Virus record (IMG/VR): IMGVR_UViG_3300020045_010841
Span: 32,001-96,000 of that record
Source: a virus
Length of the DNA stretch: 64,000 nt
Direction: 5' to 3' (one strand)
The notes below the pieces were generated by a model. It saw only the letters and a program-made list of their open reading frames with translations, was not told where the DNA came from and did no database searches. Of this stretch, positions 37,741 through 53,114 are shown one piece after another (the first letter of the stretch is position 1; the number at the start of each line of letters is the position of its first letter). Made by a program: the position numbers and the translations under genes.

Positions 37741-37761
37741 AATTGTTTTATATAAACTAAG

Positions 37762-37788: not shown

Positions 37789-37796
37789 ATATAAAT

Positions 37797-38090: not shown

Positions 38091-38135
38091 AAATCTAAAG
38101 ATATAGGCTTATGCTTTTATCTTTTCAATACCATA

Positions 38136-39056: not shown

Positions 39057-39081
39057 AATCTTAATTTAATATAGTTAATTG

Positions 39082-39154
39082 TGGTCCATGCGGGATTTGA
39101 ACCCGCAACCTTCGCGTTATGAGCGCGCTTCTCTACCAGTTGAGATAACGGACC
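39082..39154 (-). tRNA. tRNA-Met/Ile2 (CAT)
   Basis: Cloverleaf; anticodon loop CTCATAA; T-loop TTCAAAT. Confidence 0.85.
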
Positions 39155-39338
39155 TAAGTTGGAAAGTATTTAGAGATACTTTCCTTTAAAAGTTCTTTTT
39201 CACCCAAAAGTATACTTTAAAACTCTAAAGGTTTGACTTTGTTAAAGGAAAAAATCAAACTAAACCCTACTATTATTCTCATCTTTGATTTTTCGATAAT
39301 CAATTTCTAAATAGCATAGTACAATAAAACGCTCTAGT

Positions 39339-39412
39339 TGCGACGCTGTGGAGTCGAACCACATTCGTGTAGCTTATGAGACTACCCTCGATACCAACCG
39401 ATTCCGCCCGCC
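39339..39412 (-). tRNA. tRNA-Met (CAT), irregular acceptor stem
   Basis: GTAGT-CTCATAA-GCTAC; TGTGG-TTCGACT-CCACA. Confidence 0.7.
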
Positions 39413-39419
39413 ATTTGTT

Positions 39420-39516
39420 GCTGATTAATAAGGATTCGAACCTTAAACCTGTCTCCCCGTTCACAAAGTTTATCTAAGTTACTACGTTCAAATGTGCACC
39501 TTTACACCATAATCAA
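39420..39516 (-). ncRNA. tRNA-like RNA with expanded, non-canonical anticodon domain
   Basis: Acceptor TTGATTA/TAATCAG, D arm, T arm TAAGG-TTCGAAT-CCTTA; ~45 nt replace the anticodon arm. Confidence 0.6.
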
Positions 39517-39549
39517 TCGATGACTTGCAAATCATCATATAAAGGTTAA

Positions 39550-40308
39550 TTACTCCTTTATTTTACTTTTATGTTTTTTACAAACACCCCATATTTCTGG
39601 AATTTTATTTTTTACAAACTTACCTGAATATTGTGGTGACCAATTCATTAGTATTCCTAATTCTATTAACCACCCTTGTTTAGAAAAATCAATATTAGAT
39701 TCTTTTATTTTAAATATTTTTAATTGTAAATCAATTTCTTTTTGTTTTATCCTTTCAATATTTAAATGGTCTTTTATAACTTTATCTCTAGATACTCGTC
39801 TTATTTGACTTACATTTTTATTTTTACTCTTGTAAGTATCCTGAATAGAATCACAATTAGAACATAAGAATCTTAAATTAGATAATTCATTATTGTTATT
39901 AATCCCATCCTTATGATCTAAAATTAAAGGCATTATTTTACCTTTCCAATTTTCATCTTGCCCACAACATTCACAAATATAAGGAATTAATCCTTTATTT
40001 TTAATTCTATTTTTTATAACAGTTCTATCTACTTTGGAATCCTTAACAAACAATTCTCCATCAGATAATATATTTCTATTTACTCTTAAATGGAAGTGAG
40101 AAATATTAATATTAAATTTTTCAATTTCACCTTTAAGTCTTTTTAATGAACCATTACAATAAGATAATCCTAATTTTAATGTAACTTCTTTAAAATTAGT
40201 ACTATCTTTGATAATAGGTTCTAAAATTTCTTTACTATATTTAATTTTCATAATATTATATTTTGATATAAATATACGAAAATAAAACTCGAACCCAAAT
40301 TTCTTCAA
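39550..40308 (-). CDS. HNH homing endonuclease
   Basis: CECCG..LILDHKDG..NN..NLRFLCSNCDS; likely start at MKIKYSKE. Confidence 0.85.
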   Translation of the reverse strand: MKKFGFEFYFRIFISKYNIMKIKYSKEILEPIIKDSTNFKEVTLKLGLSYCNGSLKRLKGEIEKFNINISHFHLRVNRNILSDGELFVKDSKVDRTVIKNRIKNKGLIPYICECCGQDENWKGKIMPLILDHKDGINNNNELSNLRFLCSNCDSIQDTYKSKNKNVSQIRRVSRDKVIKDHLNIERIKQKEIDLQLKIFKIKESNIDFSKQGWLIELGILMNWSPQYSGKFVKNKIPEIWGVCKKHKSKIKE

Positions 40309-40316
40309 TAGAATTG

Positions 40317-40391
40317 CCGAGATAGAGAGATTCGAACTCTCTTCGAACGCATAGACAGTGCGTCATCCTTCACCAGTGGACCTTATCTCGA
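40317..40391 (-). tRNA. tRNA-Asp (GTC)
   Basis: ACGCA-CTGTCTA-TGCGT. Confidence 0.85.
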
Positions 40392-40473
40392 ATTTGGCGA
40401 TTTCGTACTAGAATTTCCATTTTGTAAAAATCGAAACTCCCTCATTCGCCACGAGGTGTAACTGCATAAATCG

Positions 40474-40548
40474 TGGGCCTGACGGGGTTCGAACCCGCAA
40501 CCTTCGCAGTGCAAATGCGACGCTCTTCCTATTAGCAGCTTCAGGGCC
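40474..40548 (-). tRNA. tRNA-Ala (TGC)
   Basis: TCGCA-TTTGCAC-TGCGA; C3:C70 instead of G3:U70. Confidence 0.8.
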
Positions 40549-40558
40549 AGTAACTATG

Positions 40559-40629
40559 TAGCCCGTGACGGTAACGATCCGTCTTTCTTTGATCGAAAAT
40601 CAAATGTCCTGCCTTTAGACGAACGGGCC
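40559..40629 (-). tRNA. tRNA-Glu (TTC)
   Basis: TTTGA-TTTTCGA-TCAAA; T-loop ATCGTTA. Confidence 0.8.
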
Positions 40630-40811
40630 AAATTTAATAAGTTATAGAGGTTTTTGGTGGTTCCCGCGTCTAGCCATTACCAAACTAACTACATTCGTAA
40701 TAACATAAAGTTATTAATTCTATTTTAATCATGTAAGATTTACCTTTCTATCTTTTACGCTTATAACTTATTATATCGTGAATATACGATTTAAAATTTG
40801 TATATCCAAAT

Positions 40812-41495
40812 TTATTTTAAAATATCTTGAAAATTTTGTTTTACAAATTTTAAACAATATTGAGGTGATTTATTTAGTAATTTACTTACCTCAATCCCCC
40901 AAGTTTTTTTAGTAAAATCTATATTAGATTCTATTAATTGTTGTTTAATTTGTTCTAATTTTAATATTTTATTAGAATTATTTTTTAATATTCTAATTTT
41001 ATCTTCTTTAGCTTTTGAATACCCCTTTTTATTTCTACCTGCAAATGTTTTAGTTTGAGAATGACAATTAGGGCAAATTATTTTTAAATTAATAATCTCA
41101 TTATTTTGATTATTCCCATCTATATGATCTAATTGTAATATTATTGGTTTATTATTCCAAACATTTTCAATACCACAATCTTCACATTTATCTTCTTTTA
41201 AACCTAAAATTAATAATCTTTTTTTCATATCTTGATTATTTAATTTAGATTTTGTTGGATTACAAAATATATCTTCAAAAGATATTATTCTACTTAATTT
41301 TACATTTGATTTTTCAAAAATTTCCTTTCTAGTTAAGAAATGAGAATTATCTAGATTAAAAAAATTTATGTAATAGTCTAAAGTTTTATAATTTTTACCC
41401 CAAGGTTGTAAACCAAAAGAAACTAAAACATCTTTTTTAGTATTATTATCTTTTAATACTTGTTCTAATAAATTTTTGTTATTTAATATGCTCAT
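40812..41495 (-). CDS. HNH homing endonuclease
   Basis: CEDCG..LQLDHIDG..NN..NLKIICPNCHS. Confidence 0.88.
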   Translation of the reverse strand: MSILNNKNLLEQVLKDNNTKKDVLVSFGLQPWGKNYKTLDYYINFFNLDNSHFLTRKEIFEKSNVKLSRIISFEDIFCNPTKSKLNNQDMKKRLLILGLKEDKCEDCGIENVWNNKPIILQLDHIDGNNQNNEIINLKIICPNCHSQTKTFAGRNKKGYSKAKEDKIRILKNNSNKILKLEQIKQQLIESNIDFTKKTWGIEVSKLLNKSPQYCLKFVKQNFQDILK

Positions 41496-41548
41496 ACAAT
41501 TTTAATTTATTATAAATATATGAAAGGAATATTAAATATCAAAAAAAG

Positions 41549-41620
41549 AGCGTCATTCCGGGTTCGAACCGGATCCTTCTCTTTGGAAGAGAGACAAACC
41601 ACCAACAATTCTTATAACGC
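41549..41620 (-). tRNA. tRNA-Gly (TCC)
   Basis: TCTCT-CTTCCAA-AGAGA; U73. Confidence 0.8.
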
Positions 41621-41702
41621 AAATAAGATAAACTTTAGCCTTATATACTAAATGAGACCCTTTAAATTATCACTAACCCTAGGTGTGATCTATTTATCTT
41701 TG

Positions 41703-41777
41703 TACCTCTGGTCGGTCCTGCCCCGACAAAATCTCTTGTTTCTAAGACAAGCGGCTTTTCTATTTGCCCACAAAGGC
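41703..41777 (-). tRNA. tRNA-Leu (TAG), short variable arm
   Basis: CTTGT-CTTAGAA-ACAAG; T-loop GGCAGGA. Confidence 0.75.
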
Positions 41778-41890
41778 TTATTTAAATTATTTACAGGGTA
41801 GAGGATTTACCTACCGCATTTCTATCCATTTCTCCATTAGTTATCTCGAGTTCTAACGAAGCGCGACATTTCTACCCTGTAAATAATTTG

Positions 41891-41970
41891 TACCCCAGGT
41901 AGGACTCGAACCTACACCCTTTCGGAACGGCGCTTAAAACCGTCGTGTCTACCAATTCCACCACTGAGGC
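41891..41970 (-). tRNA. tRNA-Leu (TAA)
   Basis: ACGGT-TTTAAGC-GCCGT; variable arm present. Confidence 0.88.
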
Positions 41971-42011
41971 ATTTAAGGTGTGTTACCCTTACACTACCGA
42001 ACCTCAGTCCG

Positions 42012-42045
42012 AGGCCCAGGTCAGATTCGAACTGACAATCTCCTT
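42012..42045 (-). pseudogene. tRNA 3'-half remnant
   Basis: GTCAG-TTCGAAT-CTGAC T arm plus CTGGGCC acceptor strand; no matching 5' half seen. Confidence 0.5.
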
Positions 42046-42125
42046 ATTTTATCTTATGTAAGATCACTTATCAATTTCGGTAGCGTCCTCTAGTTACATT
42101 GTAATAGAGGGTCGACTCTTAATTG

Positions 42126-42197
42126 AGGGTTTATAGAGGATCGAACTCTAAACTCTTAGTTTTGCAAACTAGAGGCTTAACCATCAGCCTTAAACCC
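42126..42197 (-). tRNA. tRNA-Cys (GCA)
   Basis: Loop TTGCAAA; U73. Confidence 0.8.
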
Positions 42198-42318
42198 ATT
42201 TTAAATAATATGTTTTTGTATCATATCTCCGAATAAAATTACATTACTAAAAATTCGGGCTCTTACTATTTGAGCTAATTATTTAAATTTCTATATAAAT
42301 ATTAAGGTATTAACCTTA

Positions 42319-42361
42319 ACCTTAATCTTACTTCGTAAATATATGAATAAATATTTAGTAA
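42319..42361. repeat. 43-bp direct repeat, copy 1 (contains promoter)
   Basis: ACCTTAATCTTACTTCGTAAATATATGAATAAATATTTAGTAA, identical at 46058-46100. Confidence 0.85.
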
Positions 42362-42398
42362 ACCAAATTTATTTTAATAAATTTACTTATTTCTTTTA

Positions 42399-42899
42399 TT
42401 AAAAAAGTAAATATTTTTCCCAATTTTTAGGTATATCATCAACACTTTTTAATAACATAAGATAATGTGGGCGTTTTGGTTGAGGTATTTCTTTACCATA
42501 TTCTTCTAACGTTAAATCTGCTTTTTCCCCATTACATTTTCTACATGCTGTAACAACATTTTCAAATGTGTTTTTACCCCCTTTTGATGTTGGTTGGACG
42601 TGGTCTAATGTTAATGTTTTTCTATTATCACATCCACAATAAACGCATTCGTAATTATCCCTTTTATAAACATTTTCACGTGAAAATGGAACTTTTTGGA
42701 ATTGTTGATTAACATATTTATGAACTCGAATAATAGATGGTTTTTTAATATCAAGTAATGGATTAACAAGTTTGAAACTTTCATCATGTTCTGCAATTAC
42801 TTCTGCATTTCCTTTATATGATATAACAAAAGCCCTATCTGCATTTATTATACTTCTAGCTATATAACTAGAATCTATTACTAATGTTTTCTTATTCAT
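42399..42899 (-). CDS. HNH endonuclease (McrA/HNH_5-like)
   Basis: SRENVYKRDNYECVYCG..TLDHVQP..GG..NVVTACRKCNGEK. Confidence 0.9.
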   Translation of the reverse strand: MNKKTLVIDSSYIARSIINADRAFVISYKGNAEVIAEHDESFKLVNPLLDIKKPSIIRVHKYVNQQFQKVPFSRENVYKRDNYECVYCGCDNRKTLTLDHVQPTSKGGKNTFENVVTACRKCNGEKADLTLEEYGKEIPQPKRPHYLMLLKSVDDIPKNWEKYLLF

Positions 42900-43084
42900 A
42901 ACTTATGTTGTGTTTTTCTATTATATTTCCAAGAACGATATTCTCTATATTCTTGACCATATAATCCTGATTTCTTTACTCTATGGCCTTCTTCCCAATA
43001 TGGAGGGTATAAATCATTTAAATATGTTATTCTGTACTCCTTATTATTGATAGCTTTATTATATCTATATCTATTTGCACTCAT
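42896..43084 (-). CDS. Small basic protein ending RSWKYNRKTQHKL
   Basis: 62 aa; preceded by a uORF and hairpin. Confidence 0.7.
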   Translation of the reverse strand: MSANRYRYNKAINNKEYRITYLNDLYPPYWEEGHRVKKSGLYGQEYREYRSWKYNRKTQHKL

Positions 43085-43109
43085 TTTTACTCATTTTAGG
43101 TTATTAAAC

Positions 43110-43136
43110 CTAATGAGCGTCGAATTTCTTTTTCAT
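43110..43136 (-). promoter_or_regulatory. uORF MKKKFDAH-TAG with overlapping hairpin
   Basis: CTCATT-AGGT pairs with ACCT-AA-AATGAG just upstream of the 42896..43084 start. Confidence 0.5.
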
Positions 43137-43150
43137 AATTAATTTATTAG

Positions 43151-43222
43151 CGCGCCTGGAAGGTTACGATCCCTCTATTTTTGGTTTGGAAGCAAATGTG
43201 TTACCGATTACACCACAGACGC
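43151..43222 (-). tRNA. tRNA-Trp (CCA)
   Basis: Loop TTCCAAA; G73; T-loop ATCGTAA. Confidence 0.78.
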
Positions 43223-43297
43223 AATTATAGTCTTTCCTATTAGTCATATAATGGATTTTTATACGTAATTTAGGTACCTACTATCCCAACCTTATTG

Positions 43298-43368
43298 AAC
43301 CCCTACTTGGACTCGAACCAAGATTCTATCTTTAGAAGAGATATGTTCTTCCTTTAAACTATAAGGGC
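43298..43368 (-). tRNA. tRNA-Arg (TCT)
   Basis: TATCT-CTTCTAA-AGATA. Confidence 0.85.
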
Positions 43369-43374
43369 ATTTTG

Positions 43375-43448
43375 AACACCTAATAGGACTCGAACCTACA
43401 ATCTATTGATTCGTAATCAATTGCTCTATCCAGTTGAGCTATAAGTGC
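43375..43448 (-). tRNA. tRNA-Arg (ACG)
   Basis: ATTGA-TTACGAA-TCAAT. Confidence 0.9.
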
Positions 43449-43509
43449 ATAAAGACCTGATATCCGAGTTTCCATCCTACTCAGGTCATGATAGGCTTCC
43501 TACGGGTTG

Positions 43510-43581
43510 GGTGTAAGAACGGTACCGCCCCGTCTTCCTCTGCTTCACAAACAGCCACTTCACTAAAAAGCTTCAAACACC
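43510..43581 (-). tRNA. tRNA-His (GTG)
   Basis: Loop TTGTGAA; G-1:C73; T-loop GGCGGTA. Confidence 0.72.
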
Positions 43582-43586
43582 ATATA

Positions 43587-43688
43587 AATTAAAGATTGGA
43601 CTCGAACCAACACTAAGTTTATTTCATCCTCAGCCATATCCTTAGATCTAATGTCTAAGTTAGGTGTTTACCATTTCACCACTCTAAT
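43587..43688 (-). ncRNA. tRNA-like RNA with expanded anticodon/variable domain
   Basis: Acceptor ATTAGAG/CTTTAAT, D arm, T arm GTTGG-TTCGAGT-CCAAT; internal CTTAGA-CATTAGA-TCTAAG hairpin. Confidence 0.6.
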
Positions 43689-43691
43689 TTG

Positions 43692-43759
43692 TACCGAATA
43701 CTAGTAACGCTCTAGTCTAAGATTGGATATGAGCCATTCTTGATCCTTGATCATTCGGT
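43692..43759 (-). tRNA. tRNA-Met-like (CAT) with truncated D loop
   Basis: Acceptor ACCGAAT/ATTCGGT; GATC-AAG-GATC D arm; loop CTCATAT. Confidence 0.6.
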
Positions 43760-43763
43760 ATTG

Positions 43764-43847
43764 CAGAGAAAAGAGGTCACGATCCCCATGCGAATTACGC
43801 ACACACTGTTTAGCAAACAGGTCCAACTCCTAGTTAGTACATTCTCT
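43764..43847 (-). tRNA. tRNA-Ser (GCT)
   Basis: Loop TTGCTAA; long variable arm; G73. Confidence 0.78.
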
Positions 43848-43853
43848 ATTTTG

Positions 43854-43926
43854 TAGGCATACCCAGATTCGAACTGGGATTATATCGGTATCAGCGATGT
43901 ATCCTAACCATTTAGATGATACGCCT
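43854..43926 (-). tRNA. tRNA-Ile (GAT)
   Basis: Loop CTGATAC. Confidence 0.85.
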
Positions 43927-44023
43927 AATTTAATTACTAAAGCAGGTAGTCCTCCTGCGAATATTTTATTGCGGTCGTCATTTCCTGACACCAGGTCACT
44001 TTTTATTTATTTTAGTAATTTTG

Positions 44024-44097
44024 CTCCTCAGGTAGGGCTCGAACCTACATATCTCTTGTTTAACAGACAAGCGCTTTCACCATTTAGCTACTGAGGA
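44024..44097 (-). tRNA. tRNA-Asn (GTT)
   Basis: CTTGT-CTGTTAA-ACAAG; G73. Confidence 0.9.
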
Positions 44098-44171
44098 ATA
44101 ATATTCGTCTTTCCGAATTGTCAAACGTCTATCCGTTGGTCATTTATCGTTCGGCATTACCCGAAACGTCG

Positions 44172-44243
44172 AGGACCTGGAGAATTTCGAAATCTCAACC
44201 CGCTACCTAACAAATAGCCGCTCTGCCTTTGAGCTACAGATCC
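44172..44243 (-). tRNA. tRNA-Asn (GTT), second divergent copy
   Basis: GCTAT-TTGTTAG-GTAGC; U73. Confidence 0.75.
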
Positions 44244-44326
44244 AATAATCAGTAATTATCCTACATACTCCGTCGAGTCCTCGATAAATTTATATCCATC
44301 ACTGCTGATTACCTGTGACTTACAAT

Positions 44327-44402
44327 TGGTGGGGACTATCGGTTACGCTCCGATCTCTCTAACTCTTCAGGCTAGCGCTTTCACTAGATTAGCTTAATCC
44401 CC
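44327..44402 (-). tRNA. tRNA-Phe (GAA), CCA encoded
   Basis: CTAGC-CTGAAGA-GTTAG; T-loop AGCGTAA. Confidence 0.82.
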
Positions 44403-44488
44403 AAATTCCGGTCTGTCCAAATGATCGCGAACGATTTCGCGTTAAGGACCGAGGCGTGTGGCCGGCAATCACTTCAGTGCGTTATTAG

Positions 44489-44719
44489 TTATTGGTGGTG
44501 TTTTATATAACGACCAAATTTATCTACTCTAACGTTACAACGTTCAAGTATTAAATTCCAATTACTAAAGTTAGACAATCTTGTTTTTGCTTGTGCTAAT
44601 TTTAATGCATTAGCTTCTGCTTTACTACGATCCTTATCTGTTGTTTCAACGAAATAAGTGGGAGCTTGACTTCCGTTCTGAACGGGTGTTACTCTCCAAA
44701 TTCTGATTTGTGTTTCCAT
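44489..44719 (-). CDS. Hypothetical protein within the tRNA array
   Basis: 76 aa; start codon lies inside a hairpin overlapping a uORF. Confidence 0.7.
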   Translation of the reverse strand: METQIRIWRVTPVQNGSQAPTYFVETTDKDRSKAEANALKLAQAKTRLSNFSNWNLILERCNVRVDKFGRYIKHHQ

Positions 44720-44762
44720 AATAGCTAATTAGCTACCATGGAGGAAAATCAATTGTCCTCAT
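44716..44762 (-). promoter_or_regulatory. uORF MRTIDFPPW-TAG and start-sequestering hairpin
   Basis: uORF 44733..44762; CCATGGTAGCT-AATT-AGCTATTATGG 11-bp stem includes the downstream ATG. Confidence 0.6.
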
Positions 44763-44776
44763 AATATTTATTTTAG

Positions 44777-44847
44777 TGGGGCCAGTAGGAATCGAACCTA
44801 CCCAGTGAGGTTTTACAGACCTGCTCGGCACCTTGCCTGTTGTCCCC
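44777..44847 (-). tRNA. tRNA-Tyr (GTA), short variable arm
   Basis: Loop CTGTAAA; A73. Confidence 0.75.
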
Positions 44848-44851
44848 TTAG

Positions 44852-44924
44852 TACCCTATGTTGGGATCGAACCAACTACAACGAAGATATAAGCTTCGGA
44901 CTCTAACCAATGAGCTAATAGGGC
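44852..44924 (-). tRNA. tRNA-Ile (TAT)
   Basis: CGAAG-CTTATAT-CTTCG. Confidence 0.82.
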
Positions 44925-44970
44925 AAATACACTTTCCTGGTAAATCTGTATAAGTGTGAAACCATATTCG

Positions 44971-45041
44971 TACCTCGTAGTGGAATCGAACCACTGCCTA
45001 TTGCATGTAAAACAATTACGCTACCATTACACCAACAAGGT
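44971..45041 (-). tRNA. tRNA-Val (TAC)
   Basis: ATTGT-TTTACAT-GCAAT. Confidence 0.85.
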
Positions 45042-45090
45042 AAAGTAGGCCCATTTTATAGAGTTAGGAATGGCCTGTGTATCTCTTTTG

Positions 45091-45161
45091 TACCCCCTGT
45101 AGGTAATGCTCCTACTTCCCGATATTAAAAGTATCGTGCTTCACTTTAAAGCCTAAAGGGC
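45091..45161 (-). tRNA. tRNA-Lys (TTT)
   Basis: CGATA-CTTTTAA-TATCG; T-loop AGCATTA. Confidence 0.8.
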
Positions 45162-45261
45162 GTTCGGGCACTTTCCTATTCACAGTATAAGTGCGAAACC
45201 CTGAGTTTTTTAATTCTATGCAAGGCCCAAGCCATCTATAAATTAATAACAGTCTCACTCG

Positions 45262-45337
45262 TCGGGTGAGCGGGCTTCGCTCCCGCGTGCTCTTACGTCC
45301 AAGGTAAGCTAGATAAACTTGACTCCTATACCACCCG
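45262..45337 (-). tRNA. tRNA-Pro (TGG)
   Basis: CTTAC-CTTGGAC-GTAAG; C1-G72, A73. Confidence 0.8.
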
Positions 45338-45429
45338 AATAATTTCAATTTTTGCGAGAATTGAAAAACTCACTTAACTGCCCAAATACGCGTGGTCCTA
45401 AGACACTTTTTATTCTGTTAAGATTTTTG

Positions 45430-45500
45430 TTGCCTGTGGAGGTAACGATCCTCCTCCGATGCTGTCAAAGAGCATTGTACCACCTTTATACGAACAGGCA
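45430..45500 (-). tRNA. tRNA-Gln (TTG)
   Basis: ATGCT-CTTTGAC-AGCAT; U1-A72. Confidence 0.8.
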
Positions 45501-45506
45501 AAATTG

Positions 45507-45596
45507 CGGAAGATATAGGACTCGAACCCATACACCCTTTTAAGGACTGACGCATTTCAAGTGCGCTGCCGCTAGACCAACTCGGCTTAATCTTCC
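45507..45596 (-). tRNA. tRNA-Ser (TGA)
   Basis: GCGCA-CTTGAAA-TGCGT; long variable arm. Confidence 0.88.
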
Positions 45597-45699
45597 AATA
45601 TTCTCGAAATGTCAATTAACGTATTTATTTTAATACATCGTAAATATACGATTTAAAATTTTAATATCCAAATTTAATTTAATAAATTTTTCAATTTTG

Positions 45700-45771
45700 A
45701 GCCTCTGGAAGGTAACGCTCCCTCTTCTTCTGATTACAAAACAGACATAATTGCTTTTATACTACAGAGGC
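45700..45771 (-). tRNA. tRNA-Thr (TGT)
   Basis: Loop TTTGTAA; T-loop AGCGTTA. Confidence 0.8.
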
Positions 45772-45777
45772 ATGTTT

Positions 45778-45808
45778 AAATAAAAAATCCGTTCTTTTGG
45801 AACGGATT
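45778..45808 (-). terminator. Intrinsic terminator (putative attenuator) just before the first tRNA
   Basis: AATCCGTTC-CAAAA-GAACGGATT followed by TTTTATTT on minus. Confidence 0.8.
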
Positions 45809-45834
45809 CGAATAGTATCTTTAAATTACTACTA

Positions 45835-45957
45835 TCAAACTCCGATTCCTCCTTGGGTTTCCGGTTTTAACACTACTTTATTATAAATAGACATACCGGA
45901 CCAATCACTATGATTTAGCGTTCTAAACGATGCCTGTATGTTATTATAATTTTTCAT
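45835..45957 (-). CDS. Putative attenuator leader peptide (40 aa)
   Basis: MKNYNNIQASFRTLNHSDWSGMSIYNKVVLKPETQGGIGV followed by TGA TAG TAG TAA; last codons complementary to the terminator 5' arm. Confidence 0.65.
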   Translation of the reverse strand: MKNYNNIQASFRTLNHSDWSGMSIYNKVVLKPETQGGIGV

Positions 45958-45972
45958 GTCTTATTATGTGGT

Positions 45973-45981
45973 TATAAATAT
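45973..45981 (-). promoter_or_regulatory. Late-type promoter motif ATATTTATA (representative)
   Basis: (T)ATAAATAT on plus just upstream of minus-strand starts at ~2704, 7057, 14672, 19399, 26228, 28986, 32269, 41511, 45973, mostly structural genes. Confidence 0.6.
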
Positions 45982-46057
45982 GGTAAAGAAAATTAAAAAT
46001 TAATATTTTTATCCTTCCCTTGTATTAATTATTTTATTTAAAATATTAAGGTAATAT

Positions 46058-46100
46058 ACCTTAATCTTACTTCGTAAATATATGAATAAATATTTAGTAA
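46058..46100. repeat. 43-bp direct repeat, copy 2
   Basis: Identical to 42319-42361. Confidence 0.85.
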
Positions 46101-46102
46101 TC

Positions 46103-46360
46103 CTAATAAATTTCATAAGTAGGTTCAAGAAGTTTTATTATATATTTTTCATGTATGTCACTACAAAATGAAAATATTTGCCCCTTTTCATCTTTAAAGG
46201 TGTTATATGATTTATATGCCCCCTTACGCATTTTCATGTCTTCATCAATAAAATCTGTATGATATCCTATAATAGTAGCTTCTATAGGAGTATCTCCTAT
46301 ATCGCCATAACATCTTTCACCCGAATATTTAATTAATACTTTATCTCCTTCTTTATACAT
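46103..46360 (-). CDS. Small SH3-like protein, YEIY-tag family
   Basis: MYKEGDKVLI; ends EPTYEIY. Confidence 0.75.
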   Translation of the reverse strand: MYKEGDKVLIKYSGERCYGDIGDTPIEATIIGYHTDFIDEDMKMRKGAYKSYNTFKDEKGQIFSFCSDIHEKYIIKLLEPTYEIY

Positions 46361-46377
46361 AATATTTAAATTATAAA

Positions 46378-46581
46378 ATTTAGGTAAGGAACCGCACTCT
46401 GGTCGTACCGGGCTACTATGGGTTTTAATCCAATGAGGTTGAGAGAATTCCGCGTGTGAGTCACTCCCGTACTGGCCTTTATCTATCCTTGAACTTAATC
46501 GGGTACTGTTGAGAGGTTACCACTATCAACACGCCTATTCTATGTTATTATCGGTCATAGAAAACCTATCCTTACCTAAAT
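46378..46581 (-). ncRNA. Candidate ~200-nt structured ncRNA
   Basis: Closing stem TTTAGGTAAGGA/TCCTTACCTAAA; internal TTCTATG/CATAGAA, TGTTGA/TCAACA, GCGTGT/ACACGC; GC-richer than flanks; no ORF in the track. Confidence 0.55.
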
Positions 46582-46587
46582 ATTTTT

Positions 46588-46842
46588 TTATTCTCCTTTT
46601 TGGAATTTTTCTTCCCAAATTTTCCTAACTTTGTTTGGGTCTTCAACATACTCATTCAAAGCTTTCATTCCTTCTTTAATTGTAGTAAATGGAATTGATT
46701 TGCATCCTACCTCCACTATGCATCCAATTGTAAGAAATTTAATTCTAATTTCATAATCTCTCAGACATTCACTTCTAGTAGGAACATATTCACTGCATTT
46801 TATTTGACTCATACATGGTTCATTAATTTCAGCTTCTTCCAT
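46588..46842 (-). CDS. Hypothetical protein
   Basis: 84 aa; GCIVEVGCKSIPF motif; promoter at 46871. Confidence 0.7.
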   Translation of the reverse strand: MEEAEINEPCMSQIKCSEYVPTRSECLRDYEIRIKFLTIGCIVEVGCKSIPFTTIKEGMKALNEYVEDPNKVRKIWEEKFQKGE

Positions 46843-46903
46843 AATATTTATTTGTTTTTTATTTATTTGAGTAAATATACGAATTTCAAATTCAAAAACC
46901 TAA

Positions 46904-47392
46904 TTATTTCATTAAATTTTTTAAAGAATATTCTTTAATATTTTCATATTTTTCTAACTTATATTTAATTCCTGCATTACCTAAAACCGTTTTAATTATT
47001 TTTTCTGTTGTAATTTGAGAATTGTTTTTCGAAGTTGGAAATAATATCCCCTCCTCTTTTACTTCATATGTAAGTAAATTTGGTTTACCATCAAAACTTT
47101 TTACCAAATCTTCCATAGCCTGTCTCGTTTTAGGAGGAAATGGAAATCCCTGTTTTTTTTCTAATGGACGTTTATGTGTAGGTAAATTTGGACCAAAATG
47201 CTTTATTATGGCAGCTTCTACTTCTTTTTTATTGCGAGTATTAATTAAAAATTCCCCATAATTATCTCTATTTTCTAAAGCTTTAATTATGTCTTCTTTA
47301 GTAAAACCATCCAATGGTTTTAAAAGATAATCCAATTCAGCCATCTCTCTTGGAGTAGAGGGAGAATCATTTTCTACTATTTTAAATTTCAT
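46904..47392 (-). CDS. Hypothetical protein
   Basis: 162-aa ORF. Confidence 0.7.
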   Translation of the reverse strand: MKFKIVENDSPSTPREMAELDYLLKPLDGFTKEDIIKALENRDNYGEFLINTRNKKEVEAAIIKHFGPNLPTHKRPLEKKQGFPFPPKTRQAMEDLVKSFDGKPNLLTYEVKEEGILFPTSKNNSQITTEKIIKTVLGNAGIKYKLEKYENIKEYSLKNLMK

Positions 47393-47393
47393 A

Positions 47394-47648
47394 TTATTGT
47401 GATTGTATTGTTCTGTATAAATATGCTATTTCCTCTTTGAGTAAATCAATTTCTGATTGTTTAATTAGGGTATATCCATTTTTAATAGTATTTCTAAAAT
47501 TCATAAGAATGTCTTCCTTACGATATGGAGTTAATTTAAAATAATTCTCCATCATTTCTATAGATGTCCAATGAACCGTACTCCAATCAGGAACACAATA
47601 ATTATTAGTATGTTCCTCACTTTTTAATTCCTGTTCTTTATCTATCAT
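47394..47648 (-). CDS. Hypothetical protein
   Basis: 84 aa, coupled. Confidence 0.6.
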   Translation of the reverse strand: MIDKEQELKSEEHTNNYCVPDWSTVHWTSIEMMENYFKLTPYRKEDILMNFRNTIKNGYTLIKQSEIDLLKEEIAYLYRTIQSQ

Positions 47649-48391
47649 CTTTTAGATTTTGCTAAATTTTCAAATTTTTTGAATAATAAAGATGATTTAT
47701 AAAATTTTTTAGAATCTTCATCCTCTCCCCAAACACTTAATAAATCATTTAAACTAAGGGAAGGTTTATTCATAAAAATATAATTCTGGGCATTTTCCTT
47801 TTTATACCAACATTTTCTGTGGGTAGAATTAAATATAGGAAAATATTTAGCTTCTGTTTTTTCTAAAAAATTCCAATTATTATCTGAAGTGTCCCACAAT
47901 AGCTGTTTCTCATCATATATTTCATATCCATCTTCTGTAATTAATAAAGGTCCTTTATATTTTTCTATATTGTTTATATTAACACCCGCAGAAAAACATC
48001 TAGTATCTTTATATGTAAATTCACTAATATCCCATCCTTTACAAGTTCCTGTAATTGTTTCTTTTACTTTATCTCCAATAGAAAATACTTCTCCATCACT
48101 CAATCTTTTAACTGATTTGATTATTGGGAAGTGTTTAATAGCTTCTTCAAGACTACAATACCATTCTTCATCTTTAAAAGCATACTTCCCATTAGGGTGT
48201 AATACATATGGGTTTTTATGATTATAACATAATAATTCTAAAATTTCATATTCTAATTCAATAATTGGTTCCCAATATTTTGGTTGGGTAGAAATATATC
48301 TCGTAAAGATGTCTCCATCAGAAGAACATTCATTCCAAATTTTCATCACCTCTAGTAAATTTAATAGAACTAATCCCACTCTTTTCAGCAA
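47645..48391 (-). CDS. Phage protein with IKSVKRLSDGEVFSIGD motif; N-terminus probably frameshifted
   Basis: Plausible native start MSTKYKLIQGYPG lies in another frame (48330..48449). Confidence 0.6.
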   Translation of the reverse strand: MLKRVGLVLLNLLEVMKIWNECSSDGDIFTRYISTQPKYWEPIIELEYEILELLCYNHKNPYVLHPNGKYAFKDEEWYCSLEEAIKHFPIIKSVKRLSDGEVFSIGDKVKETITGTCKGWDISEFTYKDTRCFSAGVNINNIEKYKGPLLITEDGYEIYDEKQLLWDTSDNNWNFLEKTEAKYFPIFNSTHRKCWYKKENAQNYIFMNKPSLSLNDLLSVWGEDEDSKKFYKSSLLFKKFENLAKSKR

Positions 48392-48478
48392 TCATCCCTA
48401 AATATTCAAATCCTGGATACCCTTGTATTAATTTATATTTTGTACTCATTATTTTATTTATATTATTTCCTACGTATA

Positions 48479-48673
48479 TTAATATATCTCGTATTGTGGT
48501 TCATCAACAATTTCATATTTAGTACCTATTAGATCAATATAAACACCATAATGTTTTTGTGAGGGAAAATTATAATAACATAAATCACCTGTGTATATCC
48601 CTATTTCTCCCTTACGTACAGCACCACCATTAGGATAATCTACTAATGCCTTAATTTTCTTTGGATACTCCAT
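48479..48673 (-). CDS. YEIY-tag family protein (paralog of 63736..63933)
   Basis: PKKIKAL..YPNGG..YNFPSQ; ends EPQYEIY. Confidence 0.75.
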   Translation of the reverse strand: MEYPKKIKALVDYPNGGAVRKGEIGIYTGDLCYYNFPSQKHYGVYIDLIGTKYEIVDEPQYEIY

Positions 48674-48833
48674 TAGCGATAAAATTTAGCAGGTTTAGGG
48701 AGATGTTTCTCAACTCCATTTTCATAATATGTTGTAAAATATCCAATAAAATTTGGATTTACTTCTTCCGTTAATGTTTGACGACTATCAAACGTAGAAA
48801 ACTCAACTAGTTTTCCTTCAATCATTACTTGTT

Positions 48834-49022
48834 TCATATTTTATTCTTTAAAAAATGTTTATCCTGTCCTAAGTATATATAGACTATATCAGCTATGTCA
48901 TATAACTTATCAATTTCTGGTTTTAATATTGCTCTACTTATTCTTATATACCCTTTTTCATAACGATTAAAATATTCAGGTATAAAATCATTACGATTTA
49001 ATTCTAATGTAATAATTGCCAT
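48834..49022 (-). CDS. Hypothetical protein
   Basis: 62 aa. Confidence 0.55.
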   Translation of the reverse strand: MAIITLELNRNDFIPEYFNRYEKGYIRISRAILKPEIDKLYDIADIVYIYLGQDKHFLKNKI

Positions 49023-49143
49023 TATGATAGTAAAATATAAAATCCTGTTCCTATTAAAAGTATAAGACTAATTAAAAAGTATGTTCCGTATTTGTATCTC
49101 TTCTCCATTTTTTCTCTTTCTTTTCTATAGTTTTCTTTATTCA

Positions 49144-49332
49144 TTAATAATCACCACTTAAATAAATTATTACTTTAGGTTCATCAATATTGATCTCTGA
49201 TATTTCAATTTCATCAGTATGTATTATGGTATTTAATGCGATAATTCTGGCCTCATCTATATTATGCGCCGCAATTATACAACAATTACCTACGGGATAA
49301 ATACCATTAAATTCTGCGTTGAATATTTTCAT
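49144..49332 (-). CDS. Hypothetical protein
   Basis: 62 aa, coupled. Confidence 0.6.
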   Translation of the reverse strand: MKIFNAEFNGIYPVGNCCIIAAHNIDEARIIALNTIIHTDEIEISEINIDEPKVIIYLSGDY

Positions 49333-49601
49333 TAATATATCTCGTATTGTGGTTCATCTCGAACAATTTCAAAGTAATCAAAATTAAAATTCCCTCCATA
49401 TATATTTCCTTCTATAAGACAATAATTCTCGTATTTAATGTTGATTTTACTGTTTATATGTAAGTCTGATTTATAAACCCAAGTTATATCACCAACTTTT
49501 AATGTTGTTGGGAATTGACGTGAATGGTTGGCATCATATTCTTTAATTAAACGTAATTTAATTACTTTCTTCCCTTTTAGTATGGGTTTTGGTTTATGCA
49601 T
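49332..49601 (-). CDS. YEIY-tag family protein
   Basis: Ends EPQYEIY. Confidence 0.75.
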   Translation of the reverse strand: MHKPKPILKGKKVIKLRLIKEYDANHSRQFPTTLKVGDITWVYKSDLHINSKINIKYENYCLIEGNIYGGNFNFDYFEIVRDEPQYEIY

Positions 49602-49679
49602 AATCTTTTACTATTTCTATTAATTTTTTAAGACAGAATATTTCTGCTTCTTCATAGGTATTGAAATATTCACTTCCTC

Positions 49680-49979
49680 CTACTTTTTTTCAGTAAAATG
49701 AGTAACAGAACCTTCCCATTCTAAATGACCCATTGATTTAGAAAAATCAGGTTGCCATTTATATACGTTAGCATTTAAATTACACTTCTCTCTAAACCAT
49801 CTAAAAGCTTGTTGATAAAGAGGTGCTAAAACACCATCAATGTTATTTTCACACTTATCAATAGTAAGAATACCTTCTTGTGGATTTCTTAATTCAATAT
49901 AATAACCTAGACAAGGTTCATTAAATCCTAATTCTTTTAAAGCTAATGCTTGTTCATAAGGTATAAACTCTTTTTCCAT
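49680..49979 (-). CDS. Phage protein (EFIPYEQALALKELGF type); possible -1 frameshift extension to 49594
   Basis: A_AAA_AAG before TAG; -1 frame encodes TYEEAEIFCLKKLIEIVK. Confidence 0.7.
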   Translation of the reverse strand: MEKEFIPYEQALALKELGFNEPCLGYYIELRNPQEGILTIDKCENNIDGVLAPLYQQAFRWFREKCNLNANVYKWQPDFSKSMGHLEWEGSVTHFTEKK

Positions 49980-50232
49980 AACATTTATTAATTTATGTTG
50001 TAAATATACGAAAGTCCAATTTAAAAACCTAATTTCGAATTTGGGATTTTAAAATTTTTTTTCGAGAGATTTTGGTATTGCGGAACTATGATTAAATTGG
50101 CCAATTCCGGATATATGTATATACTTTTCGGTTGGTTTGTAAAGGTGTTGTTAGTCTGTGTTCCGGTCTAATGCCTTCCTCCTGAACAATCGGCCCGCTG
50201 ATGGACATCAACGCATGAAAAACGAAGACGGC

Positions 50233-50430
50233 CTATTGGCCGTCCGTTATATAAAATACCGCTTTGTTCCCCTCATATTCCCACTTCACTACATTAAACA
50301 TATCTTTAATTTCCTGCACATGACATTCCCCTGTTATATTAATTTTCCAATTGTTATTACCTAATACTGTTACTAACGATTTGTCATAACCAATTTGGTT
50401 AAGCATTGTTTTAATATCTTTACTTGACAT
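50233..50430 (-). CDS. Hypothetical protein
   Basis: 65 aa. Confidence 0.55.
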   Translation of the reverse strand: MSSKDIKTMLNQIGYDKSLVTVLGNNNWKINITGECHVQEIKDMFNVVKWEYEGNKAVFYITDGQ

Positions 50431-50501
50431 AACTATAATTTAATTTTGGCCACCAAAAGCACCTAAATTAGGTGCTGATGGAATTATTATATTGGAATTA
50501 C

Positions 50502-51032
50502 TTACACTTCGGTTCCTCCATCTAACATACTTTCCAATACGGCTACTGCATCTGCATCTACCGCTTCAACAACTGGTTCTTCAACAACAACCGCTTTAGG
50601 TCTACCTAATGGCAATGTTCCTTTCAATGCAAGTCGTTTTTGTCTTGCACTGTTCGGGTCGATCATTCTACCCAATTTTAATTCTTTACCTTCAGCTGCT
50701 GCGGCATCTTTCTTGGCTTGAATAGCAGCTTGTTTGATATTCCAGGCACTGTTTGGATCGGCGGGTCTACCTCTTTTCCCCATATTAACCTGACTTAAAC
50801 GAATTTGACGAGGTGAATTTGGGTTGATTGGTCTACCTCTACGTTCAACCTTTTCTTCAACAGCGGCTTCTGCTGGTGGGTTTGCAATATGATACTCATT
50901 GATTCGGGTATCTAATTCTGCCGCTTTACCTTTGGTATCTAAACCTAATGCTTTCGCTTCCGCTACTAACGCTTTGTAATCGAATTTTTTAATTCCGTTA
51001 CCTACTTCTGTGTTTGTTTGAAATTTGTTCAT
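50502..51032 (-). CDS. Basic DNA-binding protein with AT-hook-like GRP repeats
   Basis: RRGRPINPNSPRQ, KRGRPADPNSAW, KLGRMIDPNSARQ, LGRPK; own promoter (51080) and terminator-like hairpin (~50458-50476). Confidence 0.65.
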   Translation of the reverse strand: MNKFQTNTEVGNGIKKFDYKALVAEAKALGLDTKGKAAELDTRINEYHIANPPAEAAVEEKVERRGRPINPNSPRQIRLSQVNMGKRGRPADPNSAWNIKQAAIQAKKDAAAAEGKELKLGRMIDPNSARQKRLALKGTLPLGRPKAVVVEEPVVEAVDADAVAVLESMLDGGTEV

Positions 51033-51202
51033 GACCTTAATTGTTTTAAATTGTTATACTTTATTAATTATCTTATTTTGTAAATATACGAACTTTAATT
51101 TTAATATCAACGACCCTATTTAAAATGTTTTTATTAATTATAATTCGTATTACTTAATCTTACAGTGTAAATATACGATTAGTATATTATAAATCCTATT
51201 CC

Positions 51203-51376
51203 TTAATCTAAATGATTTTGATTAATATGTTGTATGTAAATATTTTCCTTGTCCTGATAGCAATACCATTTCTTATTTTGTGCTTTACGTCTTGAATGAC
51301 AAGTTGAACATGAACTTAATGCTGCACATGCAATCATAAGTAATACCATAACGAATACAAAATTTGATCTTTTCAT
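51203..51376 (-). CDS. Small putative lipoprotein (57 aa)
   Basis: Hand-translated MKRSNFVFVMVLLMIACAALSSC; lipobox-like LSSC; promoter at 51401. Confidence 0.55.
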   Translation of the reverse strand: MKRSNFVFVMVLLMIACAALSSCSTCHSRRKAQNKKWYCYQDKENIYIQHINQNHLD

Positions 51377-52057
51377 AACTGATTATTTAATTATTATATT
51401 GTAAATATACGAATACATAATTAATATATTTCGACCTTAGTTTAGACAGAGAAACCTTTAATATATGTATTTCTTTTGAAAAATATTAAAGTATTGTATT
51501 GGTCGTTCCTTATTTTTATTCAACTCCTACTAGGTCGCAACCGTTTGCGTTGTGTTTATTATAATTTACTTATTTTAATGCATCTTCATAACATTACTTA
51601 ATTATATTCCAGGGACTATACGAGTCTGACCAATATTCTATTATGTAATTCGTTGTTTTCATGACCTGTGATTCTTAATTAGCCGTTCTAATTCCGTTTA
51701 ACGTTACTTAGGTTCCGTTACAATGTTCTCCCCTTACTTCTTGGTAACAACATGTTATTCATGTATAAATATGTAATTTCTCCTGTTCCCTGCGAATACT
51801 GTTTTAAATATACACAATTTATTTACCGTTATTCAATTATTTAATGCGTTAATTCTGTACTGTTCTTATGTTTGTACTACGTTCTGTGTTTTATATAAGG
51901 TGTATTTGTTATTGTGTTGTTTTACCGTTATATATTTTCGAGAGGGTAGGAAAAGGGTGGGGAGAACATGAATGAATTCTAAACCGGTCCGACCTGGTCC
52001 ATTCCTCACAATCTCCCTTCCCCCCACCTCAAAACAACCTACCCTTTATTCCCCCTC

Positions 52058-52939
52058 TTATCGGCCGGTTTCCACCACTTTATTAATATTTTCTTCATCA
52101 AACACAATGAAATATTCCCATCTATTTGAAGAGCCCGACTTTTCTCCATCTATATAAAACCCACCTTCTCCATCTGCATATCTCGGGAACCAATCATTCT
52201 TAGTATCGGAAACTAAACACAACGTTCCTTCTTTCAATACAGGTGTTAAATGTTTAGCTATTTCCTGACCAGTAGCATGTCTGAAGTGTTTTATTGCCCA
52301 ACTACCTGGTGCTCCGTGATTCTTGTTACCTGAGTTGTTTGTTAAATTGTTGTTGTTTTCAGATTTGTATACTTTGCCTTGATAAAACTGTGTATCACCC
52401 GTACCCATAACAACATCTTTAATACAATATAAGTAATCACCTACACTGTATTTAAGTTCTTCTGCTCCGAATATTTTGTCGAACAGTTCATTTTGGGGTG
52501 GTGTGCATGCAGAGCGCATTTGTTTATAAAATGTATCTGCTATTTGAACGTCTTCTCCCAATACAATTTGTTTTGACCAACCTTCTGCTAGGTCTTTTTT
52601 CCATGCAGGGCATGCAATGTTGATGATGGATTGTGCCTGTTTTGCTGTAATTTGTCTCATAACTTTGTTTTCTTTAGATTTAATATAATTAATCATGTTT
52701 TGCAATTCGTCTAATGTTTTACATACAGGGAATACACCGTAATTTTTATATTTTGATGTACTAAATTCATGTAATTCTTTTTCATCAATTCCAAACTGGG
52801 TGAATATTCTATCGTTTAGATTATTTTTGTCTTGGAGATAAAATCCATAACTACTATGAATTATTGATTCATATTCACCAATTTTAATTGTATCACCTAT
52901 TTTCATATTATAATATTTTGTTTTTTTCGATCCATTCAA
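52058..52939 (-). CDS. Multi-module hypothetical protein
   Basis: 293 aa; probable start MKIGDTIK; several SH3-like modules. Confidence 0.65.
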   Translation of the reverse strand: MNGSKKTKYYNMKIGDTIKIGEYESIIHSSYGFYLQDKNNLNDRIFTQFGIDEKELHEFSTSKYKNYGVFPVCKTLDELQNMINYIKSKENKVMRQITAKQAQSIINIACPAWKKDLAEGWSKQIVLGEDVQIADTFYKQMRSACTPPQNELFDKIFGAEELKYSVGDYLYCIKDVVMGTGDTQFYQGKVYKSENNNNLTNNSGNKNHGAPGSWAIKHFRHATGQEIAKHLTPVLKEGTLCLVSDTKNDWFPRYADGEGGFYIDGEKSGSSNRWEYFIVFDEENINKVVETGR

Positions 52940-53114
52940 ATATTTGTTGTTGACTAGCCATAATTACTAAACCTAAGGGGTATACTATTACCGCATACCA
53001 CCAATGAAAATCTTTCATCTCAAAGCAAAATGTAAAACCTATACACAAACCCAAAATGAGCAAACTTGCTATTAGATAGGTTATAACCAATAATCGATAG
53101 AGAAATAATTTCAT
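52908..53114 (-). CDS. Small two-helix membrane protein
   Basis: Two hydrophobic segments. Confidence 0.6.
   Translation of the reverse strand: MKLFLYRLLVITYLIASLLILGLCIGFTFCFEMKDFHWWYAVIVYPLGLVIMASQQQIFEWIEKNKIL

Follow-up and report, generated by a model that had tools for sequence, protein, structure and literature searches.

A probable leader-peptide attenuator with a nearly complete set of amino acids at the head of a phage tRNA array

The DNA examined in this study is a stretch of 64,000 nucleotides from a virus (IMG/VR record IMGVR_UViG_3300020045_010841, positions 32,001 to 96,000), referred to throughout as the window. On its minus strand a short open reading frame (ORF), followed by an intrinsic terminator, stands at the head of an array of tRNA genes. 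Comparison of this element with its relatives indicates that it is probably a ribosome-dependent leader-peptide transcription attenuator, in which the end of the ORF would compete with the terminator 3' arm for the terminator 5' arm. An earlier note on the same DNA had proposed an attenuator built from codons for almost all amino acids and gating the whole tRNA set. All the features that the note listed are present. The attenuator wiring, the all-amino-acid design and the link to tRNA genes are upheld here; the gating of the whole array and a counter-defence purpose are not. Every gene of the virus record (132 kb, 27% G+C) lies on the minus strand, and the window features described below are all on that strand.

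Results

The leader ORF in the window

The leader ORF (45835..45957; 40 codons and a TGA stop) is a member of a conserved family. From ATG to TGA (45957..45835) it reads MKNYNNIQASFRTLNHSDWSGMSIYNKVVLKPETQGGIGV and contains 19 of the 20 amino-acid kinds (all except Cys) and 31 distinct sense codons, as the earlier note had counted. In 20,000 random 40-codon windows taken from the genome's own long ORFs, at least 31 distinct codons were found with a frequency of 0.001 and at least 19 amino-acid kinds with a frequency of 0.023. The start context is A-rich and without a Shine-Dalgarno motif, the same as for the other genes of the genome; a Shine-Dalgarno-like motif was found in just 4 of its 109 long ORFs.

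Three extra in-frame stops, TAG TAG TAA (45826..45834), follow the TGA and are identical in the related loci L041 and L016. The four stacked stops described before (TGA TAG TAG TAA) are thus real in the window, and are confined to its clade (3 of 3 members); other clades lack them and read TGA TAT at this place. A selenocysteine or recoding reading of the conserved TGA and the hairpin was rejected, the in-frame continuation being merely 2-3 codons long before the next stop. The codon diversity was also considered as mere non-coding composition; this was rejected because the leader frame and the position of its stop are conserved.

Terminator and predicted antiterminator in the window

An intrinsic terminator just ahead of tRNA-Thr had been noticed from the sequence and was found at 45778..45809 (GAAUCCGUUC CAAAA GAACGGAUUU and a U tract). 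Its 10-bp stem occupies 45809..45785 and its T run extends to about 45778. A terminator scan of 38500..47000 gave 9 sites, against 3.6 ± 1.9 in shuffled sequences, and the stem at 45809..45785 was the longest. Comparison with L041 and L016 revealed a compensatory U-A to C-G change in this stem.

The 5' strand of the putative antiterminator (45830..45849) is made up of the last four codons together with the stop and those after it, and is the segment of the ORF that pairs best with the terminator arm. When RNA was folded as a nascent chain, with the 3' arm not yet made, this segment (GGAAUCGGAGUUUGAUAGUA, 45849..45830) paired with UACUAUUCGAAUCCGUUCC (45817..45799), the predicted 3' strand, which contains the entire terminator 5' arm. 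The mean probability that a base of the 5' arm is paired with the ORF end was 0.95, against 0.41 for a shuffled ORF end (0 of 30 shuffles reached the native value). In the full-length RNA the minimum-energy fold was the terminator (-21.8 against -17.4 kcal/mol). The fold check suggested in the earlier note came out in favour of the pairing that it had proposed, with the antiterminator as the nascent fold and the terminator as the full-length one.

An A/U-rich hairpin, GAUAGUA..UACUAUU (45811..45836), fills the gap between stop and terminator in the minimum-energy fold and may nucleate the antiterminator; hairpins of differing sequence are found at the same position in other clades. Assuming a ribosome footprint of +12 nt, an A-site stall at any of codons 1-33 would free the pairing strand, and these codons include all 19 amino-acid kinds of the leader.

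Relatives and extent of the family

Nothing similar was found when the GenBank phage collection was searched directly at the DNA and protein levels. Relatives were found through the 306-amino-acid (aa) protein encoded just downstream of the array (38136..39056), which had 91 relatives in viral contigs; 80 loci were kept. Viral-contig searches with the upstream 85-aa and 293-aa proteins gave no relatives, a search with the exact tRNA-Thr pattern gave no match, and an exact 21-nt pattern from behind the stop matched just two contigs that were already known. No sequencing run contained as much as half of the words sampled from the stretch (shares ≤0.16).

A nucleotide profile, followed by one of the peptide, identified the leader element in 33 of the 81 sources, namely the window and 32 related viral loci. 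These 33 sources were reduced to 26 unique elements, and a metagenome scan with a conserved 18-mer brought the collection to 70 unique DNA elements. A profile search of a large protein collection gave 249 clusters, all named 'hypothetical' apart from a few odd ones. A precomputed Pfam domain was present in none of the 120 listed relatives. PHROGs gave 0 families for the window peptide and none at E <0.09 for the family, of which 1 of 26 members was matched at E 0.091.

L041 and L016 share 78-79% identity with the window from the ORF to the terminator, their sequence upstream of the ATG is unconserved, and the L016 leader has an in-frame 9-nt deletion. A distant leader of 44 aa, with all 20 amino-acid kinds and the same wiring, was found in L049 and L054. 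The order of leader ORF and then a same-strand tRNA gene was seen in all 64 elements with enough downstream sequence. Where 500 nt or more follow the element (64 unique elements), the tRNA lies within 500 nt of the stop in 60 and at 772-866 nt in the other 4. Forty-eight related loci are without the family; 21 of them have no same-strand tRNA upstream of the 306-aa gene, the place of the array in the other loci, and 12 end before the array head. At L045:1884 and L051:1988 (upstream 450 nt) a lipoprotein-like ORF of 54-59 aa and a consensus promoter were observed ahead of the first tRNA seen.

Of four runs compared, all as contigs, the metatranscriptome run X11 contained short contigs resembling the leader ORF at 85-95%; one of these extends across a window-clade type of terminator and about 30 nt further. 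These contigs were not counted for transcription, termination or read-through, because RNA libraries may hold DNA and contigs cannot show RNA ends.

Alternative pairing across the family

An intrinsic terminator was present in 75 of 75 elements examined. The distance from the stop to the start of the terminator is 26-36 nt in the 26 elements from viral loci, and in 25 of these no other part of the ORF pairs as well with the terminator 5' arm as the last 21 nt. The nascent fold joins the ORF end to the 5' arm in all 26 (mean probability 0.68, against 0.26 when shuffled), usually closing a junction around one or two A/U hairpins. The duplex of each ORF end with its own terminator had a mean energy of -10.53 kcal/mol, against -8.44 ± 0.24 kcal/mol for permuted partners (49 distinct pairs; 0 of 20,000 permutations). 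The pairing segment ends -3 to +5 nt from the stop in 71 of 72 elements, and therefore a terminating ribosome would cover it.

The two strands also change together: GAUCUGGG pairs with CCCGGAUC, GAUUUGGG with CCCAAAUC (the 3' arm being also GAUUUGGG), CCGGG with CCCGG, and CCGAG mostly with CUCGG. Members in which CCGAG faces CCCGG have a GGUACC:GGUACC match beside the arm instead. Near-perfect or perfect ORF-end matches of 8-10 nt occur in L034, L013 and L005. In alignment A3 (18 sequences) the 5-bp antiterminator core was paired in 90% of cells, against at most 54% when slid; two of its pairs are changed on both sides, and its covariation score was reached by 1 of 500 shuffles. The terminator was 100% paired on the same alignment, with a covariation score reached by 0 of 500 shuffles.

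RNAalifold returned the terminator, one invariant 6-bp helix inside the ORF (CGUUAU/AUAACG) and nothing else. This helix joins A3 columns 89-94 to columns 146-151 (codons TCG TTA .. AAT AAC G) and has no covariation; it could be a pause hairpin or a region-1 hairpin.

Conservation of the reading frame

None of the 70 unique DNA elements has an interrupted ORF; its length is 37-51 codons, and the gaps inside it are all multiples of 3 in translation-blind DNA alignments. When the same genome pairs were compared, synonymous difference was about half as large in the leader (0.09-0.49) as in the 306-aa gene (0.29-0.72), and non-synonymous difference was equal to or above that of the 306-aa gene. 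The ratio of non-synonymous to synonymous change (dN/dS) was mostly 0.4-0.9. The nucleotides or codons are therefore constrained, and the amino acids far less. The earlier note had set conserved codon diversity and conserved pairing in spite of a divergent peptide as the expectation for relatives, and this is what was found: all 26 unique viral-contig elements use 19-20 amino-acid kinds, all 26 pair, and peptide identity to the leader of the window is 29-47% outside its clade.

The ORF-end segment AUUUGGGA is kept in three reading frames (..TDLG, ..HIWE and ..TFGMI, each then the stop) and is complementary to the terminator arm in each. The three-frame cases were seen at the ORF 3' ends of L034, L133, L103, L108, L111 and L106. 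The stop is TGA in 69 of 70 leaders, against 9% of background genes; the sole other, TAA in L106, arises because AUUUGGGA is there read in a shifted frame. AlphaFold2 with the family alignment gave no confident fold for the leader peptide, with a mean predicted local distance difference test score (pLDDT) of 55 and a predicted template modelling score (pTM) of 0.14, which is weak evidence.

Amino-acid completeness and codon choice

Among 170 unique family peptides (37-58 residues), 155 contain all 20 amino-acid kinds and 15 contain 19. Same-length windows of the phages' other proteins contain about 16.4 kinds on average, and the probability of finding 20 kinds in 46 residues was 0.016. Two tests internal to the family weigh more than this comparison, because homologues are not independent. 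When alignment columns were permuted among sequences, 70.1 ± 2.2% of peptides were complete, against 91.2% observed (0 of 2000 permutations). Residues lost from one place were found at others: 19 of the 20 peptides without His at its usual column carry it elsewhere, at 7 different columns, and a second His occurs in only 5 of the 150 peptides with the usual one. Relocation was likewise seen for Trp (6 of 7), Tyr (4 of 4) and Phe (7 of 7). Judged from these sequences, the amino-acid completeness of the leaders is under selection.

The leaders favour the rarest codons in comparison with background genes. CCG makes up 92% of Pro codons in leaders against 6%, TCG 45% against 4% and GCG 28% against 5%. 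The G+C fraction at third codon positions (GC3) is 0.32 in leaders and 0.21 in the genome's genes.

Leaders of split tRNA arrays

In the 430-kb contigs L005 and L050, with a 306-aa protein 62% identical to that of the window, the tRNA genes are divided into two blocks, and a separate promoter, small ORF and terminator immediately precede each. The two leaders lie at L005:1757-1885 and about 13460-13560, and likewise in L050; a further one is at L062:3373-3465, each being ahead of a tRNA block. Leader 1 of L005 and L050 (42 aa) is without C, D, E and L, and its block has no tRNAs for those four. From leader 2 (30 aa; L005, L050 and also L062) seven kinds are missing (A, F, G, K, N, P and W); the tRNA genes of its block are those for Ser, Thr, Cys, His, Leu, Asp, Met and Glu. 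In L005 and L050, whatever amino acid one leader lacks has its tRNA in the other block. Absences of this kind have chance probabilities of 3.6e-5 for one leader and 1.2e-6 for the other. Both leaders contain a 7-10 nt perfect complement of the 5' arm of their own terminator, and the first tRNA begins about 85-92 nt past the stop, which leaves no room for a promoter behind the terminator. The attenuator reading is strengthened by these two relatives, in which leader composition tracks tRNA content.

Promoter-like elements

A promoter-like motif, TTTGG..(~20 nt)..TTCG-TATATTTAC(A/G)A, occurs in 17 copies genome-wide, exclusively on the minus strand. We take it to resemble the -33/-7 promoter type of Bacteroidota. 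The copies sit mostly in intergenic positions in a region of small genes (window 37736..60253 and beyond). Exact copies of the motif TATATTTACGA are at 46082..46072 and 45648..45638. The first belongs to an upstream promoter-like element (46058..46113) with 93% identity over 56 nt to the copy at 42319..42374. A short hairpin read from the sequence, ATTAAGGT..ACCTTAAT (46045..46065), comes right after it and is common to the copy at 42343; the first ~35 bases that would be transcribed from the two copies are also alike, this hairpin included. An ORF of 85 aa (46103..46360) directly upstream of the leader has the C-terminal sequence EPTYEIY.

Nearer the leader, a proximal promoter-like box, CCATATTTATAAC (45971..45983), lies 13 nt ahead of the ATG and is the counterpart of a (C/T)ATATATTTATA box found 8-20 nt ahead of the leader ATG in relatives. 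The box of the window is weaker because it has no TTG upstream. The two promoter motifs placed ahead of the ORF by the first inspection correspond to these elements, that at 46074 to the exact copy 46082..46072 and that at 45973 to the box that relatives have before the ATG. A second promoter-like element (45624..45679, motif 45648..45638) is located ahead of tRNA-Ser and the remaining array. Internal promoters had also been raised as a caveat, and copies are indeed present at 45648, 42343 and 40786.

The tRNA array

tRNA-Thr(UGU) (45700..45771) was detected with Rfam (RF00005, 41.6 bits, E 2.6e-6) and missed by ARAGORN. It begins 6 nt past the T-rich tail of the terminator and 13 nt past its stem, and ARAGORN also places a tRNA-Thr at the corresponding position in L041 and L016. 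The T loop of the window gene is unusual (AGCGTTA instead of a TTCGAAT-like sequence). A tRNA stands directly behind the terminator in 6 of 66 elements, and also in the case of this tRNA-Thr and of the L005, L050 and L062 blocks. Within the clade of the window, tRNA-Thr is, from the placement of the promoter copies, the only tRNA predicted to depend strictly on read-through.

In the remaining array (39081..45596), HNH endonuclease genes are scattered among the tRNA genes, and two extra promoter copies are present (42343 and 40786). ARAGORN counted 18 tRNAs in the array and Rfam 21 at or above the gathering score, tRNA-Thr included. Three more tRNA-like genes were found by Rfam and missed by ARAGORN (44330, 41703 and 43587), and one at 44777 is just below the gathering score. 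The HNH genes (42399..42899, 40812..41495 and 39550..40308) gave one clear and two weak Pfam matches; each of the first two is followed by a fresh promoter copy (42343 and 40786, respectively). A weak match to the YrlA-like (Y RNA-like) Rfam family lies inside the array (41971..42048, minus strand; 24.9 bits, far below the gathering score). An Rfam scan of the leader stretch matched no family besides tRNA. No T-box or other cis-regulatory Rfam family was found in 38500..46500 at E ≤1, save weak plastid untranslated-region matches on tRNA genes.

Discussion

The element has a same-strand upstream ORF, a terminator, a mutually exclusive antiterminator, an overlap of the ORF with the switch strand, and regulatory codons that match the tRNA genes, Cys excepted. 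The following course of events is proposed. RNA polymerase would start at a phage promoter and transcribe the 40-codon leader, the A/U hairpin and the intrinsic terminator. If the ORF end is uncovered when the 5' arm emerges, the two would pair, extending the A/U hairpin into the antiterminator, and polymerase would continue into tRNA-Thr and then past the next promoter into the remaining array. A ribosome that keeps pace and occupies the last codons or the stop would leave the 5' arm to join the 3' arm, and transcription would end. Were the ribosome held up at one of codons 1-33, or absent altogether, the ORF end would be free to capture the 5' arm, with read-through as the result. Nearly all amino acids are represented in the leader, each once or a few times and often by the codon that is rarest in its box, and read-through would therefore be expected to rise with a delay at almost any position. 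In this manner the leader would gauge decoding speed in general and feed it back to the supply of tRNA.

We infer from the sequences that the leader ORF is translated, that the terminator hairpin is active, that the switch works in this direction and that it benefits the phage. Feedback of tRNA output on decoding speed is the likely use of the element, and a defence against host systems that cleave tRNA is a possible one; feedback control of decoding capacity fits equally well as the counter-defence against anticodon nucleases suggested in the earlier note. A more general proposal is that the leader is a universal gauge of decoding speed, which evolves one codon, often the hardest to read, for each amino acid served behind the terminator. 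The phage would then tune tRNA output to the needs of the ribosome, leader composition would co-evolve with the tRNA block, and the element would respond to any attack on tRNA. We regard this proposal as plausible, if a little short of probable.

Several observations speak against an attenuator of this kind. A full promoter copy at 45648 separates tRNA-Thr from tRNA-Ser in the window, and a promoter-like motif is found between the terminator and the first tRNA in 51 of 60 relatives (spacer >45 nt). The claim that read-through gates the whole tRNA set is not borne out in view of these promoters; read-through would therefore add to the own transcription of most arrays, as modulation only. The array heads of L045 and L051 consist of a lipoprotein-like ORF, a terminator and a promoter, and have no leader. 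Cys is absent, and not relocated, in the leader of the window and in 8 of 170 peptides, and the arrays examined behind Cys-less leaders do encode tRNA-Cys; a strict mirror between leader and tRNA set was accordingly rejected, as it fails for Cys. In 107 of 170 leaders the initiator is the sole Met codon. Many antiterminator cores of the main clade are just 5 bp, with the loop-side bases of the 5' arm left free, and the ORF end of L102 is A/T-rich and 12 nt from the pairing segment. In the full-length fold the terminator is more stable by 3-10 kcal/mol, and strand displacement might defeat the antiterminator; a terminator that is more stable than the antiterminator is the usual relation in attenuators. 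RNAalifold on the family alignment supported no region-1 helix that would restore termination without translation. The conservation of one part of the peptide, ..W..GF.YNNEPK, and of its codons could mean a function of the peptide or of the RNA itself. Finally, family members are homologous and counts across them are not independent.

In another explanation the element would be a self-standing small gene that has a promoter and a terminator for itself. Its product, a peptide of 37-51 aa or an RNA of ~200 nt, would act in trans, its place beside the array would be a matter of synteny, and the ORF-end match would serve its own expression (for example 3'-end formation or RNA stability coupled to translation). 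The unit does look self-contained, with a terminator in 75 of 75 elements and a second promoter in 51 of 60, and a promoter-like box lies just upstream of the ATG (42 of 73 fit a strict pattern). The blocks WSDSLCGD and GFTYNNEPK are conserved, synonymous sites are constrained as a functional RNA would predict, and an attenuator-derived RNA and leader peptide with functions in trans, rnTrpL and peTrpL, have been described. The relocation of His, Trp, Tyr and Phe and the C-terminus kept in three frames are, however, hard to square with a peptide that depends on its structure, and the AlphaFold2 model was not confident (mean pLDDT 55, pTM 0.14). The reciprocal partition of amino acids in L005 and L050 follows the tRNA blocks, and a tRNA stands behind the terminator without a promoter in 6 of 66 elements, in the clade of the window and in L005, L050 and L062. 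We consider such a gene unlikely as the explanation; it is also compatible with an attenuator, and both could hold.

If the element were a structured non-coding RNA or an ordinary terminator at the end of an operon, with an incidental and untranslated open frame, nucleotides would be expected to be conserved above amino acids, as they are, with the proportion of synonymous differences (pS) at about half that of the neighbouring gene. The codon use unlike that of the genome's genes (at least 31 codons in 40, frequency 0.001; GC3 0.32 against 0.21) and the missing Shine-Dalgarno motif would also be understandable. The motif is, however, also lacking from the genome's real genes (present in 4 of 109), an open frame of 37-51 codons with internal gaps in multiples of 3 was seen in 70 of 70 elements, and stop and pairing segment are only a few nt apart in 71 of 72. 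Rfam recognized no family besides tRNA, and RNAalifold gave the terminator and one invariant 6-bp helix. We regard this reading as very improbable. A chance ORF beside a chance complementarity, with no regulatory meaning, is scarcely credible: two G+C-rich stretches do pair easily in an A/T-rich genome and a 5-bp match is weak, but the family-wide conservation, the 0 of 20,000 permutations, the covariation and the 8-10 nt matches in L034, L013 and L005 contradict it.

Taken as an attenuator, the element can be compared with several known systems. Leader-peptide attenuators include trpL, hisL, leuL and pheL and the multivalent thrL and ilvGMEDA leaders, and are known for sensing one or a few amino acids ahead of biosynthetic or synthetase genes. 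The element resembles the trp and his types in its short leader ORF, its terminator, a predicted alternative helix that uses the 5' arm, a choice that would be set by ribosome position, and its rare codons. It differs from the attenuators of amino-acid operons in that the family of the window has no run of regulatory codons, containing instead 19-20 amino acids mostly once each. The genes downstream are phage tRNA genes and not biosynthetic enzymes, and in most members a second promoter lies past the terminator. A further difference follows from the lack of an evident region-1 helix, since an untranslated leader should then read through. T-box riboswitches bind one uncharged tRNA directly and need no ORF. 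They are alike in coupling the status of tRNA to terminator read-through ahead of translation-related genes, and no T-box match was found in 38500..46500.

Closer in logic are the attenuators of ABC-F and other resistance genes that respond to inhibition of translation (msrD, vmlR). In these, a slowed or stalled ribosome on a small upstream ORF is reported to induce read-through, and the signal is general translation stress. These systems sense drug-bound ribosomes, often through specific peptide motifs, and control bacterial resistance proteins, whereas the present leaders are amino-acid-complete and have a phage tRNA array as their target. A functional precedent is the trn operon of Anabaena sp. 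PCC 7120, an accessory tRNA array that is raised when translation is impaired (PMC8421152, PMC10272220). Its translation stress response is like the logic proposed here; unlike it, this array is carried on a bacterial plasmid and its promoter is controlled through direct repeats bound by the repressor TrcR. The terms 'leader peptide', 'attenuat' and 'terminator' occur 0 times in PMC8421152. The idea of phage tRNAs as a counter-defence is already in print. No published account of a leader-peptide attenuator before phage tRNA genes was found in the literature searched.

The leader family is abundant in environmental phage sequence (249 clusters) and is annotated only as hypothetical proteins. 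The reciprocal partition between leaders and tRNA blocks offers a clean and testable prediction, and the element, being small and natural, would lend itself to reporters of translation stress where hosts do not use Shine-Dalgarno-led initiation. If the attenuator reading is true, these phages would sense translation elongation in general and set the supply of tRNA itself by it, beyond the leaders that sense one or a few amino acids. It would bear on how phage tRNA arrays are regulated, on why the arrays are complete, and on whether they are tuned to demand or to tRNA-cleaving defences.

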